Source: a virus. Taken from it: a DNA stretch of 35,783 nt. Both the position numbers and the translations under genes were made by a program. Location: the UHGV virus genome UHGV-0117379; one strand, given 5' to 3'. Shown one piece after another: positions 5,267 to 23,036 of this stretch. Below the pieces are notes generated by a model. That model ran no database searches. It was not told where the DNA came from and worked only from the letters and a program-made list of their open reading frames with translations. Positions within the stretch are counted from its first letter, which is position 1, and each line of letters opens with the position of its first letter.

Positions 5267-6120
5267 GCACCATCCTGAAATGGGCGGGTAATAAAACCAC
5301 CATTATGTCCGAACTGAAAAAATACCTTCCTGCTGGCACGCGACTGGTTGAACCTTTCGCGGGTTCTTGTGCTGTGATGATGGAGACGGATTACCCCAGC
5401 TATCTGGTTGCGGATATTAATCCTGATTTAATCAACCTCTATAAAAAGGTTGCTGCTGATTGTGAGGCGTTTATATCTCGTGCCAGAGCTTTATTTGAGG
5501 AAGCAAACAGAGAGGTGGCTTATTACAACATAAGGCAGGAGTTTAATTACTCCACTGAAATTACTGATTTCATGAAAGCGGTATATTTTCTGTATCTCAA
5601 TCGTCATGGTTACCGTGGGCTATGTCGCTATAACAAGAGCGGGTATTTCAACATTCCCTACGGTAATTATAAAAATCCGTATTTCCCTGAAAAAGAAATT
5701 CGCGCATTTGCAGAGAAAGCCCAGCGGGCAACGTTTATCTGCGCCAGCTTTGATGAAACGCTGGCGATGTTGAAGGCGGGGGATGTGGTGTATTGCGATC
5801 CGCCTTATGACGGTACGTTTTCCGGCTATCACACTGATGGCTTCACTGAAGATGACCAGTATCACCTGGCATCCGTTCTTGAACATCGATCATCTGAAGG
5901 TCATCCGGTCATTGTTTCTAACAGTGACACATCCCTGATCCGTTCGCTGTATCGCAATTTTACTCACCACTACATCAAGGCAAAACGCAGCATCGGCGTG
6001 GCAGCTGGTGAGAGTAAATCTGCAACAGAAATCATCGCTGTTTCCGGGCCGCGCTGCTGGGTAGGATTTGATCCTTCGCGTGGCGTGGATTGTTCCGTCG
6101 TGTACGGAGTGCGTGCATGA
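5263..6120 (+). CDS. dam: DNA adenine methyltransferase (Dam family, N6-adenine)
   Basis: N-terminal LKWAGNK...PFAGS AdoMet motif and catalytic DPPY motif ([10 protein letters not shown]); ATG 5263 overlaps the previous stop; AGGAGGTG RBS. Confidence 0.85.
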
Positions 6121-8531
6121 GCCATGCTGATATGAACAACTGCAGCGGCTTTAACGAGGTCGCCGCAGCATTCTCATGGAACAGCCCGAAAAAGGCCATT
6201 AACCCTTATCTGGACCCGGCGGAAGTTGCGCCGGTTTCTGCGCTTTCAAACCTGATCACTCTGTACGCTGCCGATAACGAGCAGGAACAACTGCGCCGCG
6301 AGGCACTGAGTGATCAGGTCTGGGAGCGTTATTTCTTTAATGAATCCCGTGATCCTGTCCAACGCGAAATGGAGCAGGATAAGCTAATTAGCCGGGCAAA
6401 GCTGGCGCATGAGCAGCAGCGTTTTAATCCAGACATGGCCATTCTGGCGGACGTCAACGCCCAGCCTTCCCATATCAGCAAGCCGCTGATGCAACGTATT
6501 AAATACTTCAGCAGCCTGGGCAGGCCAAAGGCTTATTCCCGCTATTTGCGTGAGACGATTAAGCCATGCCTGGAACGACTGGAGCATGTACGCGACAGTC
6601 AGCTATCCACTTCTTTTCGCTTTATGGCAAGCCATGAAGGGCTGGACGGCCTGCTGATCCTGCCTGAAATGAGTCAGGATCAGGTGAAACGCCTGTCCAC
6701 CTTGGTAGCTGCGCATATGAGCATGTGCCTTGATACAGCTTGTGGCGATTTGTATGCCACCGATGATGTTACGCCAGAAGAAATCCGCAAGACATGGGAA
6801 AAGGTGGCAGCGGAAACCCTGCGTCTGGATGTTATCCCGCCTGCGTTTGAGCAACTCCGTCGGAAAAGAAACCGCCGTAAACCCGTGCCTTATGAACTCA
6901 TTCCTGGTTCGCTGGCGCGTATGTTATGCGCCGACTGGTGGTATCGGAAATTATGGAAGATGCGTTGCGAATGGCGGGAAGAGCAGTTGCGTGCTGTTTG
7001 CCTGGTCAGCAAAAAAGCATCTCCCTATGTCAGCTATGAAGCCGTGATGCATAAACGTGAGCAGCGCCGTAAGTCGCTGGAGTTTTTCCGTTCTCATGAA
7101 CTGGTGAACGAAGACGGCGACACGCTGGATATGGAAGACGTGGTAAACGCCAGCAGCAGCAACCCTGCGCATCGCCGCAATGAGATGATGGCCTGTGTTA
7201 AAGGTCTGGAGCTTATCGCGGAAATGCGCGGTGACTGCGCCGTTTTCTACACCATCACCTGTCCGTCACGTTTCCATTCCACGCTAAATAACGGCAGGCC
7301 CAACCCGACCTGGACAAATGCGACGGTAAGACAAAGCAGTGATTATCTGGTCGGTATGTTTGCTGCATTTCGTAAGGCGATGCACAAAGCCGGATTACGC
7401 TGGTATGGCGTGCGGGTGGCTGAGCCGCATCATGACGGTACAGTTCACTGGCACCTGTTGTGTTTTATGCGCAAAAAAGATCGCCGCGCCATTACTGCTT
7501 TGTTGCGTAAGTTTGCCATTCGTGAAGACCGCGAGGAGCTGGGTAATAACACGGAACCACGCTTTAAGTCTGAGCTGATAAACCCGCGCAAAGGTACGCC
7601 AACAAGCTACATCGCGAAATACATCAGTAAGAACATTGACGGGCGTGGTCTGGCTGGCGAGATCAGCAAGGAAACGGGTAAATCCCTGCGTGATAACGCC
7701 GAATACGTTAATGCCTGGGCGTCTCTGCATCGTGTTCAGCAATTCCGCTTCTTTGGCATTCCGGGGCGTCAGGCTTACCGTGAACTGCGATTGCTGGCTG
7801 GTCAGGCGGCAAGGCAACAGGGGGACAAAAAAGCAGGTGCGCCGGTACTGGATAACCCGCGCCTTGATGCCATCCTGGCTGCCGCTGATGCTGGCTGTTT
7901 TGCCACCTACATCATGAAGCAGGGCGGCGTACTGGTTCCCCGCAAATATCACCTCATCAGAACCGCTTATGAAATCAACGAAGAGCCGACCGCCTATGGC
8001 GATCACGGTATTCGTATTTATGGCATCTGGTCACCCATTGCAGAGGGCAAGATCTGCACTCATGCGGTGAAGTGGAAAATGGTTCGTAAGGCCGTTGACA
8101 TTCAGGAGGCGGCAGCCGACCAGGGCGCTTGCGCCCCTTGGACTCGTGGCAATAACTGTCCCCTTGCTGAAAATTTGAACCAACAAGGGAAAGACAAATC
8201 AGCTGATGGGGATACCAGAACGGAGATCACCCGCATGGATGACAAGGAGTTGCACGATTACCTGCACAGTATGAGCAAAAAAGAGCGCCGGGAACTGGCA
8301 GCAAGGTTACGCCTGGTGAAACCGAAATGGCGTAAAGACTACAAACAGCGAATTACAGAGCATCAGCGTCAGCAGCTCGTCTATGAACTGAAGTCCAGAG
8401 GATTTGATGGCAGCGAGAAAGAGGTCGATCTGCTCCTTCGCGGTGGCAGTATTCCGTCAGGAGCAGGCCTGCGTATCTTCTATCGGAACCAGCGTTTGCA
8501 GGAAGATGATAAGTGGCGGAACCTGTATTAA
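6117..8531 (+). CDS. A: Replication initiation endonuclease (P2 gpA-like, rolling-circle HUH type)
   Basis: ATG 6117 overlaps the dam stop; HUH-like motif HWHLLCF and paired-tyrosine motif [10 protein letters not shown]; about 800 aa, at the P2 gpA position. Confidence 0.85.
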
Positions 8532-8883: not shown

Positions 8884-9117
8884 ATGCGCATTGAAATAAT
8901 GATCGATAAAGAGCAGAAGATTAGCCAGTCTACCCTGGACGCCCTTGAATCCGAGCTTTACCGCAATCTGCGCCCCCTGTATCCCAAGACGGCGATCCGC
9001 ATTCGCAAAGGCAGTGCCAACGGTATCGAGTTGACCGGCTTAAAACTTGATGAGGATAAGCAGCGGGTAATGGAAATTATGCAGCAGGTCTGGGAAGACG
9101 ACAGCTGGCTGCATTAG
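8884..9117 (+). CDS. DinI-family protein (Tum-like SOS module)
   Basis: ATG 8884 with GAGGTGA RBS; MRIEIMID...KQRVMEIMQQVWEDDSW resembles E. coli DinI (MRIEVTIAK...KQRISEILQETWE), recalled from memory. Confidence 0.75.
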   Translation: MRIEIMIDKEQKISQSTLDALESELYRNLRPLYPKTAIRIRKGSANGIELTGLKLDEDKQRVMEIMQQVWEDDSWLH

Positions 9118-9403
9118 CGAACGTTGCGGACGATAAAACTGGCTTTTACCGTCCGCAAGGTTGAACAACGAGCCGTGCGAGGCGTTAGAAATTGCCTTTG
9201 TTAGTGCCTGCTTCTCATAAGAGGCACTATATATGCTAAATGCAGTGGTTTAAGGCAGAAACATCTTGCGCGATTAGGGGCAATGAACTTAAGTTAAGTA
9301 ACGCAACCAACAGTTAAAACGGTTGTCTTAGTTATAAGGAACTTGCTGTTGTGGTTGCTGGTGACGAAGTGTACACTTCCGCGCCGTATAAGAAGGAGGG
9401 GTT

Positions 9404-9622
9404 ATGTCAAGTATCGCCGCATTGAAGCTGGGTAATCCAGTTGAACGTTTGGCACGGGTTCTGAAAGAGAACCAGGACAAGCTCAATCTGAGTAAAGATG
9501 GTTTTGTGTCCGTAGATTTGTCCAACGAAGAAGCTATGAAAGCCATCCGAGATCAGATGGATAAGCTTGAAGGCATCAAAACGAGCACTGTTAAAGCAAA
9601 ATATTATTACAGAACCCGATAA
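9404..9622 (+). CDS. Hypothetical small soluble protein (72 aa)
   Basis: ATG 9404 with AAGGAGGGG RBS; stop overlaps the next start (TAATG). Confidence 0.6.
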   Translation: MSSIAALKLGNPVERLARVLKENQDKLNLSKDGFVSVDLSNEEAMKAIRDQMDKLEGIKTSTVKAKYYYRTR

Positions 9623-10464
9623 TGGCAACATTACTTTTAGCAGTGATTTTGGTTAGTGGTTTTATATATGTAAACCTATCACTTTCAACACGTTATAGAT
9701 ATAAGCGTTCCAATGGCTGGGACGCTTATTTTTTTGTGGCTGCATGGGGAATTGTCTTTTTCCTCGCTGGCGGCTTCCTTACCTTCGCTCTTAACATCAG
9801 CGGTGGGTTTCGCTGGTTTTCTAATGCGCTGAATCTGACTCCAGACAGCTTTAACGGGATGTTATCCACCACAACCGATAAACCGCAGCGCATCAATGAA
9901 ATTAAGCAAATCGCGTGGGTTGTGATTTCAATAGTTCTCGCGGCGCTGTTCGGTTGGCTAAACAAACGCCGTACTTCAAAAGGGGATCGCCGTTGGGATG
10001 CACTGGCAAAGGCAGTGGGAAACAATGCTTTTGAATCGCTGCTCATGGAAGCATCAGCTCGCCAGTTTCCTATCATTGCTACACTTTCATCACGCAAAAT
10101 CTATGTAGGGCTGGTGACTTGCCCTGCGTTGGAAAATGGATTGTCGGAACACCTTGAAATTCTCCCCTTGCTGAGCGGATATCGTGATAAAGACGACCTA
10201 ACGATAAATATCACGACAAACTATCATCAGCACTATCTTGATAGCGGTGTTATCAATGGGATGTCGCGCCTGAATATCCAGGATTTCCGTGTGCTTCTCC
10301 CTAAAGATGAAGTTGAAACCATCTCGTTTTTTGATACTGAAACGTATAACAAATTTAAAGAAAACGAAGCGCGTGACCGGAAAGACTGCCGCAAGTTGGG
10401 TGGTAAAAAGCCATCCGCACGCAGGAGAAAGACTGCTGGCGACGCAGAGCAGGGTAGTGCATGA
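9622..10464 (+). CDS. Membrane protein with three predicted N-terminal TM helices, unknown function
   Basis: Hydrophobic segments LLLAVILVSGFIYV, AYFFVAAWGIVFFLAGGFLTFAL and IAWVVISIVLAALFGWL, then a roughly 170-aa soluble domain; AT-rich. Confidence 0.65.
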   Translation: MATLLLAVILVSGFIYVNLSLSTRYRYKRSNGWDAYFFVAAWGIVFFLAGGFLTFALNISGGFRWFSNALNLTPDSFNGMLSTTTDKPQRINEIKQIAWVVISIVLAALFGWLNKRRTSKGDRRWDALAKAVGNNAFESLLMEASARQFPIIATLSSRKIYVGLVTCPALENGLSEHLEILPLLSGYRDKDDLTINITTNYHQHYLDSGVINGMSRLNIQDFRVLLPKDEVETISFFDTETYNKFKENEARDRKDCRKLGGKKPSARRRKTAGDAEQGSA

Positions 10465-10512
10465 CTATGCTGCATGAATTTGCATGATCGTTTGAGGATC
10501 GTTTTAGCTCCG

Positions 10513-10537
10513 GCCCGCCAGTTCAGGCGGGCTTTTT
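10513..10537 (+). terminator. Rho-independent terminator (GCCCGC-loop-GCGGGC followed by TTTTT)
   Basis: Read directly: stem 10513-10518/10527-10532, T-run 10533-10537, about 50 nt after the membrane-protein stop. Confidence 0.6.
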
Positions 10538-10581
10538 CATATCTCATGCAGGTGCATGAAAACCACTACACAAAGCGGGCA

Positions 10582-10600
10582 GGCGTGGCGGGGATACGAG
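10582..10600. other. Putative cos cohesive-end sequence GGCGTGGCGGGGATACGAG
   Basis: First 13 nt identical to the P2/186 cohesive-end consensus GGCG(A/T)GGCGGGGAAAGCA as I remember it (15/19 to 186). Preceded by five copies of TGCATGA. Confidence 0.4.
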
Positions 10601-10665
10601 CGCGCGCTCATTACTTTTATAATTCTAGGGTTATAATACAGGGCTATCTTTCTAGGAGAAAACAC

Positions 10666-12318
10666 ATGTCCTTAGAGTTTATCAAAGAACAGTTGTCAGA
10701 TTTTATCTCATCTACAGAACCAGAAGTAATGGCTATACAGGGTGAATGGGGAATTGGTAAAACCTATACTTGGAATACGTTCCTAAAAGATAATAAAGAT
10801 AAGGTTGCATTTAATAGATATAGTTATGTCTCTCTTTTTGGTATAAATTCACTAGATTCTTTAAAGTATTCTATTTTTGAGAATGCAATTACAAAGGAAT
10901 ATATTGGAAATAAACCTGATTTGGAGACAGCAACAACAAACGCAAGTGGACTTTTTGAATCGTTTTCTCGAAAAGCCGCAGGTTTGTTAAAAGAAGCTCC
11001 TGTTGTAAAAAACTTCTCTACGACACTTGAAGCAATGTCATTTCTGACCGTTTCTAAAATGATTGTAGTAATAGATGACTTAGAAAGGCGTGGCAAAAAC
11101 TTAGATGTTAAAGATGTTTTAGGGCTAGTATCTCTATTAAAGGAGCAGAAGGATTGTAAGGTGGTTCTATTGCTTAACAATGGCACAGCTAGTATGGAGG
11201 ATTATTCTACTTATAAAGAAAAGGTCATTGATAGAGATATCACTTACAATCCAACACCAGAAGAATGCGCAGATATAGCCTATAAAGGTGATTTTCATGT
11301 TTATAACTTGTTAAGTAAATATTCCATTTCTTTAGGTATCAAGAATATTCGAATCTTAAAAAAGATAGAACGTTTTTTCGTGTCCTTAACACCAAATATT
11401 ATAGGTGATGTTGAGACAATTTCAAATGAAGTTGCGCATTCATTAACTCTGTATTGTTGGAGCCATTACGGATTTTCTCCAGAGGGAGATGTGCCATCAC
11501 TAGAATATATTAGGGGAGTGAGGAATATATATACTTATAATGACAAGGAAGAAGGCCATGAGAAAGTCTGGCTTAATACCTTGCTTAAATATGGATATAG
11601 AAAAACGAATGATCTTGATGAGGTTCTTATTGATATGGTTAGATATGGCTATCTTGATAAGAGCAGTTTCCAAAGACAAATAAGCCTAAGGAATGAGGAG
11701 ATTACGCGTGATAATAAACGAGGTTCCTTATCTGAGGCATGGCAGTTCTTTCATAATTCATTTGATGACAATCAAAATCAGGTTGTTGACAAGCTATATC
11801 AAGCGGTGGTTGATGGGATGAAGTATGTGACTCCAAGTGATTTAGATAATGTTGTCGGACTATATAGGGATTTCGGAGAGAATGCTAAGGCGAGTGAATT
11901 GATTGAACAGTTTATTAATTATGGTAACGATGCTCTAAAGGAATATGTTCAATCTATTTATGTGAATGTTCATCCCGTAAGAGATGCTGAGTTGTTGTCA
12001 AAAATTCAAGCCTATTCTAATATTATAAATATTGATGGTTCAATATATGATGTTCTTAAGAAATTATCAGGTCAGAATGGTTGGTCTGATAGACATGAGG
12101 AAATATTGGATGCTGCTTCAGTAGATGACTACTATCAATTATTTAAAAATGTCATTCTTGATGGTGGTGATTCAATAATAGCTACGGCGCTTAAATTCGG
12201 AAATTATAGTAATGGTTCTGATAGAATGAATCGTATAGGGAAAAAGGCAAGGGATGCCTTGATAAGAATTGGAGATGAATCGGCGATTAATAAAATACGT
12301 GTAAGGCGATTTTTGTGA
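10666..12318 (+). CDS. KAP-family P-loop NTPase (candidate defence cargo)
   Basis: ATG 10666 with AGGAG RBS (track ORF starts at 10474). Walker A GEWGIGKT and KAP-type Walker B VVIDDLERR; AT-rich; own TATAAT boxes (10618-10623, 10632-10637) and a downstream terminator. Confidence 0.75.
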   Translation: MSLEFIKEQLSDFISSTEPEVMAIQGEWGIGKTYTWNTFLKDNKDKVAFNRYSYVSLFGINSLDSLKYSIFENAITKEYIGNKPDLETATTNASGLFESFSRKAAGLLKEAPVVKNFSTTLEAMSFLTVSKMIVVIDDLERRGKNLDVKDVLGLVSLLKEQKDCKVVLLLNNGTASMEDYSTYKEKVIDRDITYNPTPEECADIAYKGDFHVYNLLSKYSISLGIKNIRILKKIERFFVSLTPNIIGDVETISNEVAHSLTLYCWSHYGFSPEGDVPSLEYIRGVRNIYTYNDKEEGHEKVWLNTLLKYGYRKTNDLDEVLIDMVRYGYLDKSSFQRQISLRNEEITRDNKRGSLSEAWQFFHNSFDDNQNQVVDKLYQAVVDGMKYVTPSDLDNVVGLYRDFGENAKASELIEQFINYGNDALKEYVQSIYVNVHPVRDAELLSKIQAYSNIINIDGSIYDVLKKLSGQNGWSDRHEEILDAASVDDYYQLFKNVILDGGDSIIATALKFGNYSNGSDRMNRIGKKARDALIRIGDESAINKIRVRRFL

Positions 12319-12325
12319 TTTTTAT

Positions 12326-12347
12326 AGGGGTGATTAACCCCTTTTTA
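12326..12347 (+). terminator. Stem-loop (GGGG-TGATTAA-CCCC) plus T-run between the convergent NTPase and portal genes
   Basis: Read directly from the sequence; short stem, so moderate confidence. Confidence 0.5.
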
Positions 12348-12348
12348 T

Positions 12349-13377
12349 CTAATTTAATGAGTAATCATTAAATGCTATGATTTTTTCATTTAGCCAAGTA
12401 TTAATTTCTATAAGCCTTTTTTGTAACGGAATTAATTCATTTCGGACAAAGACTTTACTAGCCTTTTCCACATCCCCAAACCCCCCAACATTATTCGGCA
12501 TTATCCCCATCATTTGCGGCGGCACGCGGTGTGCCGCCATCATGTCGTCCCGGCTCACGTTCTTAATATTCAAAAACTCATCCTTCGCTGCGACCTCTGA
12601 CAACGGGATAATCTGAAGCCCGTCCTTTTTGCCGTTAGGCGAGTACATAAACAGGTTGCGGAAGTTGCCCGGACCTTTGGCGCTTTTCATCGCATTGCGG
12701 AGGTTGTTCACATCTTCCTGGTTCTGCGCGGCATCGGTCATGTACATGATGAAGCCTGCATGACTGCCGTTAATGTAATACTTCCGGCGGAACAGCGTGG
12801 CGGACTCGTTGAGCAGGGCTGACGGAATGGCAGAAAGATAACCTGGCAGGCCGTAGATCTCCTGGTTGATGTCCGGTTCCATCAGATGAAAAATGCTGCC
12901 TTTCGTGAACTGATACTGCTGGGTTGTAATACCATATTGCACAAACCAGTAGGTATCCAGGTCTAATCCGCGTCGGGTGTATTTTGCCAGCGCAGGTTCA
13001 AGGGCGATAACTTCACCGAAGCGGTTCGTGCGTTTCTCCAGGTAGGCGTTACCAAATACCAGATAGTCCTGCACAAAACGTGAAAAAGCCTGCTGGCTGA
13101 GCAGCGGGTGAGGGATATAGGTGCTGGTCAGAATATTGCACTTTACTGCAATCGGTGAGCTGTGATGCACGGCGGCGCGGAAGGCTCGCGCCAGTCCGTC
13201 AAAACTCACTGGCGGCTCATACCAGCGATCTGTCTGTACGCATTCCACATAGTCCAGTCGTTCGCGGCGATCCAGTACTGGAATGGGATCGCCGAAGCTG
13301 AATGCTTCGGCTGAAGTCTGGCTTTTATGCTGGGTCTGGTTCTGCGACGCAGCGCGGTTCTTCTTACTCTTTCCCAT
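12349..13377 (-). CDS. Q: Portal protein (P2 gpQ-like)
   Basis: 342 aa from ATG 13377 (track ORF begins at a TTG one codon earlier); size and position match P2 Q; start overlaps the P stop. Confidence 0.85.
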   Translation of the reverse strand: MGKSKKNRAASQNQTQHKSQTSAEAFSFGDPIPVLDRRERLDYVECVQTDRWYEPPVSFDGLARAFRAAVHHSSPIAVKCNILTSTYIPHPLLSQQAFSRFVQDYLVFGNAYLEKRTNRFGEVIALEPALAKYTRRGLDLDTYWFVQYGITTQQYQFTKGSIFHLMEPDINQEIYGLPGYLSAIPSALLNESATLFRRKYYINGSHAGFIMYMTDAAQNQEDVNNLRNAMKSAKGPGNFRNLFMYSPNGKKDGLQIIPLSEVAAKDEFLNIKNVSRDDMMAAHRVPPQMMGIMPNNVGGFGDVEKASKVFVRNELIPLQKRLIEINTWLNEKIIAFNDYSLN

Positions 13378-15143
13378 CAAAAAATCTCCACAATATTACT
13401 GGTATTGGCGGACTCGCCCTGCAGTGGTTCGTTAAACAGTGCGTGCATTGTTGCCCACGCCAGATCGGCGTGGCTGGTTTCTTCGCTGCGGCTGGCTTCA
13501 TACGTCGGGCGGTTGCCACTGGCGGTGGTGGCGCGACGGATTGCCATGAATGACTGCGCAATGTCGGTGTGCCCGGCGTCAAACTCCAGACGGCGGTGGC
13601 TGATAATGTCGTAGGCCTTGAGTACCAGAGCGTTTTTAACGTTGGGGTTGTAGACAAACTCCCGGACGGCAGGAAAAAACGCTTTCACGTTCTCGTAAAC
13701 CCCGTGACCGACGCCGGTTGAGTCGATACCGATGTATGTCACGTTGTACTGTTCAGTCAGTTTTTTGATGGCGTCAGCCTGGGCGCGGAAGTCCATCCCG
13801 CGCCACTGGTGACGCTCAAGAATGCGGAACTTACCGCCCGGCACGGCTGGCGGTGCCACCACCACGCACCCGGCGCTGTCGCCGTTTTGCGTACCTTTTG
13901 CCGGGTCATAACCGATCCACACTTCGCGCCAGCCAAACGGGCGCAGGGCCAGTGCATGAAAGTCGGTCCAGACTTCCCAGCTGTCCACCATGCACGCCTG
14001 CAGCTCGCTGAGCGGAAACACGGACGCGAGATCGTCCACAAACTCGCACATCAGCAGGTTCTGGTATTCGTCCGGGCTGTACTCCATGCGCAACTGGTCG
14101 AGATCGAACAGGTTACATCCGCCGCGCACAGCATCTTCCACGGTGACTATCTGGCGGTATTGCCCGTCTGCGCACAGCAGGCCGGGGGCCAGATTGCTGT
14201 GGGACAGGTCGATGTCCACCTTATCGGCTTTGTTGCGCCCACGGTTGAACAGCGCACCGGACCAGAACGGATAAGCACTGTGTGTCAGGCTGGATGGTGT
14301 GGAAAAATAGGTTTGTCGCCATTTTTTGTGAATAGCCATACCGGAAGCCACTTTGCGCAGCTCCTGGAATTTCGGTATCCAGAAATATTCATCCAGATAC
14401 AGGTTGCCGTGGTAACTCTGGGCCGTGCGGGCATTGGTGCCGAGGAAGTAAAGCGTAGCCCCGTTAGGAAGCACCATCGGATCGCCTTTCAGCTCCACTT
14501 CCACTTCTTTGGCGAAGTCGATGATGTACTGTTTAAAGACGTGGGCCTGTGCCTTACTGGCGGAAAGGAAAATCTGGTTACGTCCGGTAAGCAGGGCGTC
14601 AATCAGGGCTTCACGGGCAAAGTAAAAGGTCGCGCCGATCTGGCGTGACTTCAGCAGGTTGCGGATGCGGTTGGTTTTTCCGGCTTCCCACCAGTGGCGC
14701 TGGTAGTTGAACATGGAGGAATGGAAGATTTCTTCCAGCTTCGCAATCTGTTCATCGGTGAAAACGTTCTTTTCCGGCTGACGACGCGGGCCTTTGTTGC
14801 GGTTGGCGACGTTAGGGTTTAAGTCGGCTTCGTTGCCGCCATTGTTAAACTTGCCGATCCGCGCGTGGCGCTCCGACTGGCGCGCCAGCAGGTCAATCTC
14901 TTTGAAATCTTTCCCTTCTTTGTGCTCCTTCATGATGAGCTGGCAGTAGCGTGCGGCGGTGGTGAGCTGCATCTGATCCAGCGGCCCATAGTCACCCCAC
15001 TTGTCGCGTTTCTTCCAGCTGTGAACGGTTGCAACTTTCTCGCCCAGCATTTCAGCAATGCGGGCTACGCGATATCCCTGAAAGTACAGCAGCATGGCCT
15101 GCCGACGGGGATCGAGATCTGCGGATGTCAGTGTGGTGTTCAT
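13377..15143 (-). CDS. P: Terminase large (ATPase) subunit (P2 gpP-like)
   Basis: 588 aa, ATG 15143; immediately upstream of Q on the same strand and divergent from the O operon, as in P2. Confidence 0.85.
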   Translation of the reverse strand: MNTTLTSADLDPRRQAMLLYFQGYRVARIAEMLGEKVATVHSWKKRDKWGDYGPLDQMQLTTAARYCQLIMKEHKEGKDFKEIDLLARQSERHARIGKFNNGGNEADLNPNVANRNKGPRRQPEKNVFTDEQIAKLEEIFHSSMFNYQRHWWEAGKTNRIRNLLKSRQIGATFYFAREALIDALLTGRNQIFLSASKAQAHVFKQYIIDFAKEVEVELKGDPMVLPNGATLYFLGTNARTAQSYHGNLYLDEYFWIPKFQELRKVASGMAIHKKWRQTYFSTPSSLTHSAYPFWSGALFNRGRNKADKVDIDLSHSNLAPGLLCADGQYRQIVTVEDAVRGGCNLFDLDQLRMEYSPDEYQNLLMCEFVDDLASVFPLSELQACMVDSWEVWTDFHALALRPFGWREVWIGYDPAKGTQNGDSAGCVVVAPPAVPGGKFRILERHQWRGMDFRAQADAIKKLTEQYNVTYIGIDSTGVGHGVYENVKAFFPAVREFVYNPNVKNALVLKAYDIISHRRLEFDAGHTDIAQSFMAIRRATTASGNRPTYEASRSEETSHADLAWATMHALFNEPLQGESANTSNIVEIF

Positions 15144-19881: not shown

Positions 19882-20275
19882 AGCAGTGCCTTATGTCCGC
19901 AATAACCCGGACAAACTGCATCTGTTTGTGGATAACGGTTCGCTGGTTGCCACGGGGGCCAGCTCCATGTCATGGGAGTACCGCTATACCCTGAACGTGG
20001 TGATAGAGGATTTCAGCGGCGACCAAAATTTGCTGATGGCCCCGGTTTTACTGTGGCTGCGGGATAACCAGCCCGATGCCATCAATAACCCGGCGTTACG
20101 GGAAAAGCTATTCACCTTTGAGGTGGATATTCTGCGCAACGATGTCTGTGATATCAGCCTTAACCTGCAACTGACGGAACGTGTGCTGGTCAGCACTAAC
20201 GGCAGTGTGTCGAGCGTTGAAGCTATAGCGGAACCTGATGAACCTGAAGAAATGTGGACGGTGAAACGTGGCTGA
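19844..20275 (+). CDS. R: Tail completion protein R (P2 gpR-like)
   Basis: Track ORF starts at TTG 19823; GTG 19844 follows CAGGAGC RBS and aligns with the P2 R N-terminus as I recall it. Confidence 0.75.
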   Translation: MNKPQSLRHAINKAVPYVRNNPDKLHLFVDNGSLVATGASSMSWEYRYTLNVVIEDFSGDQNLLMAPVLLWLRDNQPDAINNPALREKLFTFEVDILRNDVCDISLNLQLTERVLVSTNGSVSSVEAIAEPDEPEEMWTVKRG

Positions 20276-20732
20276 ATTGCAGAAAGTGGACGACTGGCTG
20301 AGTGCCTTGCTGGCGAATCTGGAACCAGCCGCCAGAAGCCGCATGATGCGCCAGCTGGCGCAGGAACTGCGCCGGACACAGCAGCAGAATATCAGGATGC
20401 AACGCAATCCTGATGGCAGCAGCTATGAACCGAGGCGAGTAACAGCACGCAGTAAAAAAGGCCGCATCAAACGGCAGATGTTTACAAAACTTCGCACCAC
20501 AAAATACCTGAAAACCGCCGCCAGCGCGGATTCTGCCAGCGTACAGTTTGAAGGTAAGGTGCAGCGCATCGCCCGCGTTCACCTTTACGGCCTGCGTGAT
20601 CGCGTCAGTCGAAAAGGACCGGAGGTCCGTTATGCAGAGCGTCGTTTGTTAGGCATTGCTGAAAAAGAACAAAGTTTTATATTTTACACATTAATCAGTT
20701 GGTTACAGGAAAAGGGAGGGTTGCATAAGTGA
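20268..20732 (+). CDS. S: Tail completion / virion morphogenesis protein S (P2 gpS-like); C-terminus possibly chimeric
   Basis: GTG start overlapping the R stop; the last 25 or so codons are AT-rich like the adjacent moron. Confidence 0.75.
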   Translation: MAELQKVDDWLSALLANLEPAARSRMMRQLAQELRRTQQQNIRMQRNPDGSSYEPRRVTARSKKGRIKRQMFTKLRTTKYLKTAASADSASVQFEGKVQRIARVHLYGLRDRVSRKGPEVRYAERRLLGIAEKEQSFIFYTLISWLQEKGGLHK

Positions 20733-20782
20733 GTTTATTTTACTTCAATGAAAATATAAAATCTGCTATATATAAAAACATT

Positions 20783-20791
20783 TGTTATAAT
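20783..20791 (+). promoter_or_regulatory. Extended -10 element TGTTATAAT for the moron NTPase gene
   Basis: TG-N-TATAAT read directly, about 30 bp upstream of ATG 20820; weak -35. Confidence 0.45.
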
Positions 20792-20819
20792 GATATGATT
20801 TTCTTAAGGATAGGATGTT

Positions 20820-22331
20820 ATGCGCCCCAAAATTGGTGATTTTGAATTTGGTGAGGTTTATGGAGAGAATGAGGTATTATTTCTCGATAATTACTCGAAA
20901 TATTTTTATGATATAAATAATTCATTAAGTAAACTTGATAGAAAAAATAAAATGCTCGTAATTGGCAGGAAGGGGACGGGTAAGACATTGCTTGTTAATG
21001 TCTACTGTAACGCCAAGCGAAAAAATAATTATATTGCAGTTGTGGAATCATTAAAAGATTTTGTTTTTCATGAACTTACTCACTTTCAGGGGCAGGATGT
21101 GTCTTCCACAAAATATGTACCAATTTTCAAGTGGATGATATTGGTCAATCTTGCTAAGAATATTGTAAGTAATAAAAAAGGATTTAGTGAGGATAAAATA
21201 GTTCATTTGGAAAGTTTTTTACGTTCTTTTGGCCATGTCGCGGGCGAGTTAAGGCCTGAGCAAACAGTTGAAATAACTAGGGAGTACCAAGCGTCGGGTG
21301 AGGTTGGTATCGGATTTAGATTCCCAGTATTACGTGGTGAAGCCAAAGCAAAAGATGGTGAGGTCGAGAAAACAAAAGAAACAAAAAAGAATTATTTGGA
21401 ATGTATGGAATCTTTGCAGTGTTTTATTGTTGACATGCTAAAAGAGAGTAATAAAAAAATATATGTATTTTATGATGAGTTAGATGATAAGTTTGATGCA
21501 ACAGTTGAATATAAAAATGCAATGATAAGTTTTTTAAATGCTGTTGTGTCAATTAATAAAACTCTAATGCAAAATAAAATAGATGCTAAAATTGGTGCAG
21601 TTATTCGTCATGATATAATAAATACTTTTTCATCGCCGAATATTAATAAAATCATTGAAGATAACTCTGTTACACTTGATTGGTGTTCTGCTGGAGAACG
21701 AGCAAGTGATTCTGAGATTTTTGATATGATTGCTTTTAAGATCAAAAACTCCACTGATTATTATAATGATTTAAATGGTTCTAATTTGTTCGGGAAAATT
21801 TTCACTGAGAGAGTTGCAGGTGAGCATAGCTCTATTTATATTTTACATAGAACTCTAGGTCGCCCAAGAGATGCCGTTAGGATGCTAACTTATATTCAAG
21901 ATGAATATGGAGAAAATACTGAAAGATTTGAAAGTTCCATGTTTACAAAGATTTCTAAAAAATACTCATCTTATCTTTTACGTGAAATTAGATCTGAGCT
22001 TGCGGGACATTTAAGTGATTCAGAAATAGATGACAGTTTTTCTCTTTTACGTTCAGTAAAAAAAAGAGGTTTCACTCCACATTTAATCAAGGAAAAATTT
22101 GAAGAATTGAAGTTAGGAGATGGTACATTAACGCTTAATAAAATACTGAGTTGTTTATTTAAAGTCGGTGCTATCGGGAATGTACTCAGGAGATCTAAAA
22201 CAGATGGCGGAGATGTTTATTTGTGGTCATTTAATGATGAAGATTTAGAAATGGACCCAACGTTGAATTTTGAAATACACTGTGGTTTGTGGGATGCACT
22301 AGGAATTATCAAGCCTAAACTTAGGCAATAA
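20820..22331 (+). CDS. P-loop NTPase (503 aa), candidate single-gene defence moron
   Basis: Walker A GRKGTGKT and Walker B IYVFYDELDD; AT-rich; own promoter and a perfect terminator; inserted between S and V. Confidence 0.8.
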   Translation: MRPKIGDFEFGEVYGENEVLFLDNYSKYFYDINNSLSKLDRKNKMLVIGRKGTGKTLLVNVYCNAKRKNNYIAVVESLKDFVFHELTHFQGQDVSSTKYVPIFKWMILVNLAKNIVSNKKGFSEDKIVHLESFLRSFGHVAGELRPEQTVEITREYQASGEVGIGFRFPVLRGEAKAKDGEVEKTKETKKNYLECMESLQCFIVDMLKESNKKIYVFYDELDDKFDATVEYKNAMISFLNAVVSINKTLMQNKIDAKIGAVIRHDIINTFSSPNINKIIEDNSVTLDWCSAGERASDSEIFDMIAFKIKNSTDYYNDLNGSNLFGKIFTERVAGEHSSIYILHRTLGRPRDAVRMLTYIQDEYGENTERFESSMFTKISKKYSSYLLREIRSELAGHLSDSEIDDSFSLLRSVKKRGFTPHLIKEKFEELKLGDGTLTLNKILSCLFKVGAIGNVLRRSKTDGGDVYLWSFNDEDLEMDPTLNFEIHCGLWDALGIIKPKLRQ

Positions 22332-22332
22332 T

Positions 22333-22359
22333 AAAAACGCCCTTTAATAGGGCGTTTTT
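22333..22359 (+). terminator. Rho-independent terminator, perfect 11-bp stem AAAAACGCCCT/AGGGCGTTTTT
   Basis: Read directly; 5-nt loop TTAAT; begins 2 nt after the moron stop codon. Confidence 0.75.
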
Positions 22360-22393
22360 ATTTAAAGTTGTCATTCTTTCTTTAAATTATCAT

Positions 22394-22411
22394 TGTGCCA
22401 AATCTCTTACA
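22394..22411. promoter_or_regulatory. Ogr-type late-promoter dyad TGT-N12-ACA upstream of V
   Basis: TGTgccaaatctcttACA read directly; its centre is about 55 bp from the V ATG, which is tight for a -55 element. Confidence 0.4.
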
Positions 22412-22457
22412 ATTCTAAATAGATGAATTAGTCTTTGTTCTGTTTGATAATTTGGAA

Positions 22458-23036
22458 ATGAATACACAACTGACAGAAATCATGCGCCTTATCACCAACC
22501 TGATCCGCACTGGTGTAGTCACCGAAGTGGACAGGGAAAACTGGCTTTGCCGGGTGAAAACAGGCGACTTAGAAACCAACTGGATCAGCTGGCTGACCCT
22601 GCGTGCCGGGAATGCCCGGACATGGTGGCGACCATCGGAAGGTGAGCAGGTGGTGCTGCTGAGTCTGGGCGGCAATCTGGAGACCGCCTTTGCGCTGCCC
22701 GCTGTCTATTCGAATCAGTTCGCACCACCGTCGACGTCGGCGGACGCCTGCGTGACAGAACATCCTGACGGTGGCTGGTTTGAATACGAACCCGCCACCG
22801 GGCGCTGGTATGTCAGGGGCATCAAATCCATGGTTATTGAGGCTGCCGACAATATCACCCTGAAAACCAGTGAGTTTGTGCTGGAGGCTGACCGCACGCG
22901 TATTAATAGTGAAGTAGTGATCAATGGCGGCGTTACCCAGGGCGGCGGTGCGATGAGTTCTAACGGAATTGTGGTTGATGCACATCAGCATACTGGCGTC
23001 CTGAAAGGCGGCGACACAACCGGAGGCCCGGTATGA
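22458..23036 (+). CDS. V: Baseplate assembly protein V (spike; P2 gpV-like)
   Basis: ATG 22458 (track ORF starts at TTG 22452); size and position match P2 V. Confidence 0.8.
   Translation: MNTQLTEIMRLITNLIRTGVVTEVDRENWLCRVKTGDLETNWISWLTLRAGNARTWWRPSEGEQVVLLSLGGNLETAFALPAVYSNQFAPPSTSADACVTEHPDGGWFEYEPATGRWYVRGIKSMVIEAADNITLKTSEFVLEADRTRINSEVVINGGVTQGGGAMSSNGIVVDAHQHTGVLKGGDTTGGPV

Follow-up and report, generated by a model that had tools for sequence, protein, structure and literature searches.

How KAP NTPases act in immunity is largely unknown, and few members of the family have been tested, namely, PifA, EF_KAP, and Reve. Reve (UnknownSys7; plasmid pFD425) is a single-gene KAP defense system from a P4-satellite hotspot that cut Drexlerviridae plaquing up to ~10^6-fold, with an efficiency of plaquing down to 2.5e-6 (bioRxiv 10.64898/2026.02.27.708500). 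PifA, which is encoded by the F plasmid and excludes T7, is a founding member of the KAP family that lacks transmembrane helices (PMC13001434), and the enterococcal KAP defense, represented by EF_KAP, depends on an intact Walker B motif (PMC12632615). Defense genes of many kinds are found in the gpA-gpQ interval of P2, which is a published defense hotspot (Rousset et al. 2022, PMC9122126; Vassallo et al. 2022, PMC9519451). Here, we analyzed a KAP-family P-loop NTPase gene in the UHGV virus genome UHGV-0117379, a stretch of 35,783 nucleotides (referred to below as the window) that is a P2-like (Peduoviridae) prophage also present in Escherichia coli and Klebsiella. The gene lies between a putative cos site and the portal gene, and it probably encodes a single-gene anti-phage (superinfection-exclusion) system that is carried as lysogenic-conversion cargo in the gpA-gpQ hotspot.

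On the profile scores, the best family assignment of the 550-amino-acid product is KAP and not STAND. Its match to the Pfam profile KAP_NTPase (PF07693) scored 29.6 bits, above the gathering threshold of 20, with residues 8 to 193 aligned to positions 6 to 224 of the 293 in the profile; NB-ARC (14.5 bits), NACHT (11.5 bits), AAA_16 (17.9 bits), and ATPase_2 all fell below the Pfam cutoffs, and, unlike the STAND/NLR-like Avs ATPases, the protein has no N-terminal effector domain. The criteria for the family were taken from Pfam, from PifA itself, and from statements in PMC13001434 and PMC12632615. Both KAP signatures are present, that is, a Walker A motif of the form GxWGxGK[ST] with its conserved Trp and a Walker B motif of the form hhhhDDL(D/E)R with its conserved Arg, and their core residues were invariant in an alignment of 36 sequences (the KAP protein and 35 homologues, down to 41 to 42% identity). 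The same alignment showed invariance of the family motif around Y52-S-Y-x-S-L-F-G59, of N171, which is a candidate sensor 1, and of N227-I-R229, a candidate sensor 2 or arginine finger. A first-pass annotation of the window had named the gene a KAP NTPase from its Walker A (GEWGIGKT) and Walker B (VVIDDLERR) motifs, and this identification stands. The same annotation had remarked that no transmembrane insertions were obvious and had called their lack atypical for the family. Their absence was borne out, since no transmembrane segment was found in the protein, in which the highest 19-residue Kyte-Doolittle mean (1.35) lies at the strand before Walker B. The two or four transmembrane helices that are missing here are typical of KAP proteins but not universal; because PifA lacks them too (Kyte-Doolittle maximum, 1.27), they are not strictly defining for the family, and their lack is not very atypical.

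The protein also matched phrog_4740 over its full length (E = 4.9e-124; residues 1 to 550 on positions 1 to 624 of 627), and its best match in PADLOC was the single-gene candidate PDC-S49 (E = 4.5e-28; 96.5 bits), a profile for which no curated cutoff is given. An NCBIfam search of the protein returned no family match, and a PDB sequence search with the family profile returned nothing relevant; the RefSeq product name (WP_038431152.1) is "P-loop NTPase fold protein." By these matches, the KAP protein belongs to a phrog_4740/PDC-S49-like group, the same broad group as Reve.

Reve is the closest tested relative that we found. Its protein sequence was obtained by translation of the synthetic fragment Syst.19_UnknownSys7 in the preprint supplement (586 amino acids; 30% GC). 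Like the gene in the window (34% GC), Reve is a single AT-rich gene located beside cos, at a cos-plus-CGCGCG junction, and its product is a soluble KAP NTPase of similar size (586 versus 550 amino acids). The NTPase and lid portions of the two proteins are homologous, with 26% identity over 227 aligned positions in the first ~240 to 245 residues (BLASTP E = 2e-12; hhalign probability, 97.8%; hhalign E = 7.7e-13), and family motifs beyond Walker A and Walker B are shared, namely, Y(I/V)S(V/L)xGxNSL, EKVI, and NIRI. Reve likewise matches PDC-S49 (E = 2.5e-11) and, over nearly its full length, phrog_4740 (E = 2.7e-17), and ORC is the top fold match of both proteins. However, the C-terminal ~300 residues of the two proteins do not align pairwise, and the settings differ: Reve belongs to a P4-like satellite and reads toward cos, whereas the window gene is carried by a P2-like helper phage and reads away from cos. 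For Reve, anti-Drexlerviridae activity has been measured. As judged from these alignments, the window protein is a relative of Reve and not its orthologue.

An AlphaFold2 model built with an alignment of homologues (mean predicted local distance difference test [pLDDT] score, 82.6) divides the protein into an N-terminal NTPase core with a helical lid and an all-alpha C-terminal domain (Table 1). The only low-confidence stretch, residues 96 to 119, lies between Walker A and Walker B. The top structural matches of the N terminus were the DNA-bound initiator-clade ATPases Cdc6/ORC, TnsC, and MuB, together with NLR-type ATPases; this similarity is limited to the generic ATPase core and lid, and in the viral fold library BFVD only generic AAA+ proteins were matched. 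In distant homologues, the C-terminal domain is 33 to 37% identical, compared with 60 to 63% for the ATPase core; such faster C-terminal divergence is the pattern that a specificity domain would show. The layout of the protein recalls EF_KAP and its enterococcal relatives, in which a KAP NTPase is followed by ~300 amino acids without a known domain, a tail that has been proposed as an effector or specificity region (PMC12632615). This likeness was drawn from the published description, and EF_KAP differs in having two N-terminal transmembrane helices, of which the window protein has none.

The location of the gene agrees with its proposed role, as gene A, the putative cos site, the KAP gene, and the portal gene (Q) follow one another in the order that defines the gpA-gpQ hotspot. 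To the first-pass annotation, the gene had appeared as an insertion at a place where P2 has almost nothing between cos and Q. That statement is correct, because in P2 and 186 only ~170 nt separate cos from the portal stop codon (167 nt on the Q side of P2) and P2 tin and old are located on the A side of cos; what the annotation did not remark is that the slot belongs to the published hotspot, so that the gene is no unusual insertion. We compared the interval in 80 IMG/VR loci whose portal proteins were at least 92% identical, and both cos and the portal stop codon could be located in 76 of them. Among these 76 relatives, the cos-portal interval ranged from 177 to 3,518 bp and held 43 gene arrangements made up of 70 protein clusters, of which almost all lie on the strand of the KAP gene, which itself was present in four loci. 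When representatives of the most common cargo clusters were searched with PADLOC, matches in the slot were to ShosTA (six loci), PDC-M03 (five loci), PDC-S06 and IetAS (three loci each), retron II-A (three or four loci), and Lamassu LmuAB, AbiU, and retron I-C (two loci each); with the KAP cassette included, at least 31 of the 76 loci carried a system or candidate recognized by PADLOC. A SEFIR-domain protein occupies the slot in a Klebsiella phage whose cos flank is identical. The KAP gene is therefore exchangeable cargo in a defence-rich slot adjacent to cos. At one locus (L048; IMGVR_UViG_3300029212_000210), the slot is "empty," with a length of 177 bp like that of P2 and 186, and this interval may represent the ancestral state.

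The KAP gene has a GC content of 34.1% (26.7% at third codon positions), compared with 50.8% for the window and 50 to 57% for the neighboring phage genes, as the first-pass annotation had indicated in describing it as strongly AT-rich; its dN/dS of 0.13 against a 77%-identical E. coli allele indicates purifying selection. Both the slot and this class of gene have been catalogued before. In the part of Table S5 of Rousset et al. that was consulted, KAP_NTPase is listed at least 69 times among the hotspot arrangements, and accession WP_038431152.1 was not among the entries examined (PMC9122126). KAP was not among the systems tested in that study (PMC9122126), and Vassallo et al. make no mention of it (PMC9519451).

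The P2 cos 19-mer had no match in the window when three mismatches or fewer were allowed, and the putative cos site was located by eye and by a 186-type motif. This putative 19-nt cohesive end, GGCGTGGCGGGGATACGAG, is identical in 19 of 19 loci (the window and 18 representative relatives). The 18 relatives retain cos and CGCGCG, and their similarity to the window ends abruptly 6 to 7 nt past cos, at window position 10607. The same breakpoint is seen in complete E. coli genomes, of which 1,246 of 5,426 match the first ~158 nt of the query (to about window position 10607), although only 128 carry the gene. In P4 satellite fragments from the supplement to 10.64898/2026.02.27.708500, cos is likewise followed by CGCGCG(C) and then by unrelated cargo. 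The start at cos plus 6 or 7 nt, common to the P2-like lineage and to P4 satellites, suggests from these alignments a shared recombination junction, and the same sequences suggest that very little Q-side sequence is needed beside cos. The cos-plus-7-nt junction could be a recombination point for the exchange of cassettes between helper and satellite. As with the P2 tin and old genes and the gpA-gpQ hotspot in general, highly variable defense cargo is located near cos in the A-to-Q interval, and the A side of cos is also variable among the relatives; however, tin and old are on the A side in P2, whereas the exchangeable cassette of the window is on the Q side, starting 7 nt after cos.

The distribution of the gene is sporadic. 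It was found in 128 of the 5,426 complete E. coli genomes, compared with the 1,246 that carry the cos flank; because of these counts and its presence in only 4 of the 76 close relatives, it is not a conserved morphogenetic gene. In one E. coli genome, that of W137 (NZ_CP163067.1, 3084960 to 3088238), an IS2 element lies inside the matched region, which comprises the KAP gene and its flanks. The identical 550-amino-acid protein is encoded on 394 Klebsiella and E. coli contigs, and in some sources it already bears the name "KAP family P-loop domain." A protein search that was capped at 8,000 scored candidates yielded more than 1,000 full-length colinear homologues of 550 to 560 amino acids, from Enterobacteriaceae, Vibrio, Shewanella, Pseudoalteromonas, Pseudomonas, and Aeromonas. 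Alleles that are 42% (Salmonella) and 77% (E. coli) identical are likewise located between cos and Q in other 186-like prophages, a Pseudomonas copy resides in an integrase/AlpA island, and a Vibrio copy is a chromosomal singleton. A Cronobacter copy is located in the accessory region of a lambdoid prophage, beside an AbiJ-like gene; at the loci concerned (L095 to L097), it is flanked by genes for pentapeptide-repeat and AbiJ_NTD4-like proteins at about positions 5425 to 6234 and 8911 to 9804, a neighborhood that looks like a small defense cluster. No close homologue was found in deposited phage genomes, where the full-length relatives, from Burkholderia phages and Escherichia phage CMS-2020a (a 109-kb record), are only ~26% identical. 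The neighboring genes change from one context to the next (P2-like, lambdoid, island, or chromosomal), and there is no conserved partner gene. On this comparison, the family behaves like a mobile gene that travels alone.

The data directly support the identity, fold, and motifs of the protein, the variability of the slot, its defense-rich neighbors, and the homology to Reve. From these we infer a defense activity, with sensing by the C-terminal domain and oligomerization, and the nature of the effector step. We postulate that the prophage would express the KAP protein constitutively from its own weak promoter and that the C-terminal helical domain would recognize a phage-derived trigger. The trigger would then flip the N-terminal ORC/STAND-like ATPase, acting as a nucleotide switch, with binding or hydrolysis of ATP and probable oligomerization, a step that is modeled on related AAA+/STAND proteins, and the outcome would be either a block to phage replication or the sacrifice of the cell. 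Since no enzymatic effector can be recognized, the ATPase or its oligomer, or else a host partner, would have to carry out the blocking or killing step. In a more specific version, which we consider doubtful, the protein would be an immune ATPase of an "effector-less" kind: once activated, the soluble KAP/ORC-like oligomer would act as the effector, and the C-terminal helical domain would set which phage is recognized. By analogy with ORC/Cdc6, TnsC, and MuB, such an oligomer might be loaded onto the DNA of an incoming phage or form a coat on it, or it might instead consume ATP in amounts large enough to affect the cell.

Several observations weigh against an anti-phage role or against parts of this scheme. 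Comparison of the folds of the C-terminal ~300 amino acids identified no effector domain or enzyme fold, and this domain is colinear and moderately conserved across Gammaproteobacteria, which makes it less variable than many phage-sensing domains. The match to PDC-S49 is partial (residues 6 to 429 on profile positions 9 to 441 of 624), the C-terminal ends being different, and PDC-S49 is itself only a computational candidate, of which no mention was found in a literature search. The identity to Reve is only 26% and is confined to the N-terminal 245 residues, and its specificity, and even its activity, may not transfer. No published experiment on the window protein or a close homologue was found, and promoter-like sites near the KAP gene were in no excess over the expectation from shuffled sequence. 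Finally, the hotspot also holds partition systems and toxins, such as a cytolethal distending toxin, and only about one-third of the systems cloned by Rousset et al. were active, most being inactive on the panel used (PMC9122126).

The points about the hotspot and about PDC-S49 would also suit cargo that is not antiviral in the usual sense, that is, a gene with a host-fitness, regulatory, or addiction role or one that targets the P4 satellite or the life cycle of its own phage; the cos-adjacent junction that is common to P4 would fit a conflict between P2 and P4. We regard this reading as improbable, because the homologous NTPase module in Reve is part of a protein that protects strongly against phage, the family adjoins other defense genes in several prophage types, and the lack of a partner gene argues against an addiction pair of the toxin-antitoxin style. 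The resemblance of the N terminus to DNA-bound initiator-clade ATPases and the position of the gene, 66 nt from cos, could also be taken to mean that an ORC/Cdc6-like ATPase beside cos helps the prophage to package or replicate its DNA. However, the gene is absent from most close relatives, one of which has the empty slot, P2 and 186 have no gene at this position, the base composition is foreign, homologues also occur outside phages, and the structural similarity does not extend past the generic core and lid. A packaging or replication helper is very unlikely, because the presence of the gene is so sporadic.

A different kind of defense is also conceivable, in which the protein would bring about abortive infection at the membrane in the manner of PifA, by associating peripherally with the inner membrane, sensing a phage protein, and causing leakage or depolarization with loss of nucleotides; the membrane contact would perhaps be made by the insert that separates Walker A from Walker B and is poorly ordered. 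PifA shares with the window protein the KAP signatures GxWGxGKT and DDL(D/E)R (GAWGSGKT and DDLDR in PifA) and the lack of transmembrane helices, and it is likewise a single protein on a mobile element, one that excludes phage. The insert coincides with the stretch of low model confidence, transmembrane helices are present at the corresponding site in the P-loop NTPase Tmn of the YobI family, and the membrane phenotype of PifA against T7 is summarized in the same paper (PMC13001434). However, the similarity to PifA is at the level of motifs only (BLASTP E = 0.007 over 22 residues; hhalign probability, 20.8%), and PifA, with 741 amino acids, has an unrelated C-terminal region and is cotranscribed with the repressor gene pifC. 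In addition, the insert contains no conspicuous membrane segment of strongly hydrophobic or amphipathic character, and EF_KAP, a KAP defense that has been tested, is not abortive-infection-like (PMC12632615). A PifA-like mechanism is thus unlikely, and a soluble, single-gene anti-phage system remains the interpretation that we favor. In proposing the gene as a defense candidate, the first-pass annotation anticipated this interpretation, which agrees with the partial PDC-S49 match and with the homology of the NTPase module to that of the validated Reve system.

The features of the locus are collected in Table 1. The open frame extends from 10474 to 12318 on the plus strand, and the ATG at 10666 is the start of the KAP gene: it is the start in RefSeq and in all of the aligned homologues, and 35 of the 35 homologues share a Met-Ser start, in agreement with the 550-amino-acid product given by the first-pass annotation. 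A 614-amino-acid form from the ATG at 10474 was rejected, because the extension of the frame crosses both the hairpin that precedes cos, which is strongly terminator-like, and cos itself. Several database entries (e.g., WP_234299956.1 and WP_122633483.1) keep the 614-amino-acid form, probably through a miscalled start codon. The annotation had also credited the gene with its own TATAAT promoter elements and flanking terminators. The two hexamers and both hairpins are present, but the promoter claim was not confirmed, since the -35 elements are poor and a consensus promoter scan called neither TATAAT box.

Table 1. Coordinates of the KAP gene, its parts, and the surrounding features in the window
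Feature	Position	Strand	Remarks
Replication gene A	6090-8531		Followed by a small hypothetical gene, DinI, orf72, and orf280
Intrinsic-terminator-like hairpin GGCCCGCC...GGCGGGCT with T-run	10512-10533	+	Closes the gpA-side accessory genes (DinI, orf72, orf280)
Putative cos cohesive end, GGCGTGGCGGGGATACGAG, 19 nt	10582-10600	+	First 13 nt are those of phage 186 cos, GGCGTGGCGGGGAAAGCAT
Conserved CGCGCGC junction	10601-10607	+	Homology of relatives stops here
Variable cargo cassette (promoter region, KAP gene, and terminator)	10608-12348	+	Replaced by unrelated defense cassettes in relatives
Second TATAAT hexamer	10618-10623	+	Not conserved in the L015 allele
TATAAT hexamer, candidate -10	10632-10637	+	Kept in an 80%-identical allele (L015); putative promoter element
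Shine-Dalgarno AGGAG	10654-10658	+	7 nt 5' of the ATG at 10666
KAP-family P-loop NTPase coding sequence	10666-12318	+	550 amino acids, soluble; RefSeq WP_038431152.1
NTPase core and helical lid, residues 1-245	10666-11400	+	Predicted fold like that of ORC/Cdc6-type AAA+/STAND ATPases
Walker A GEWGIGKT, residues 26-33	10741-10764	+	G26, W28, G29, G31, K32, and T33 invariant (36 sequences)
Walker B VVIDDLERR, residues 134-142	11065-11091	+	I136, D137, D138, E140, and R141 invariant (36 sequences)
All-alpha C-terminal domain, residues 246-550	11401-12315	+	Generic helical repeats; no recognizable enzymatic fold
Terminator-like hairpin AGGGGTGATTAACCCCT with T-run	12326-12342	+	Between the KAP and portal stop codons
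Portal gene (gpQ homologue)	12349-13380	-	Bounds the slot on the right; convergent with the KAP gene
Terminase gene	13377-15143	-	

Two other parts of the window deserve mention. Between DinI and cos (9404 to 10464) are orf72 (phrog_9843) and orf280 (phrog_3630; hydrophobic N terminus), which have no Pfam or PADLOC match and are kept in relatives from Klebsiella, E. coli, and Salmonella regardless of the cargo. The possibility that they are partners of the KAP gene was rejected, because they stay constant while the cos-Q cargo changes. A second AT-rich island (20750 to 22400; 30 to 38% GC) holds a single open reading frame of 503 amino acids (20820 to 22331, plus strand), which follows a gpS-like tail-completion gene (20268 to 20732; PF05069) and precedes a putative late-gene open reading frame (22452 to 23036). 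It has no Pfam or PADLOC match, and its sole match is to phrog_13260; it probably represents a further cargo gene, located in a slot of the late operon other than the classical Z/fun position.

The window protein is compact and soluble, has a confident AlphaFold model, and is widespread, which makes it a convenient model for a KAP ATPase without an obvious effector, and Reve, as a distant tested relative with a different C-terminal half, is suited to a comparison of specificity. For phage therapy against Klebsiella and E. coli, the gene is one more prophage-borne candidate resistance determinant. Beyond the missing effector and the comparison with Reve, the remaining interest lies in the cos-plus-7-nt junction that is shared with P4. 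These data sharpen the anatomy of the hotspot, in that its portal-side cassette begins, in this lineage, exactly 7 nt after the cohesive-end sequence and P4 satellites use the same junction, which bears on the trade in defense genes between helper phages and their satellites and on how much portal-side sequence cos needs.

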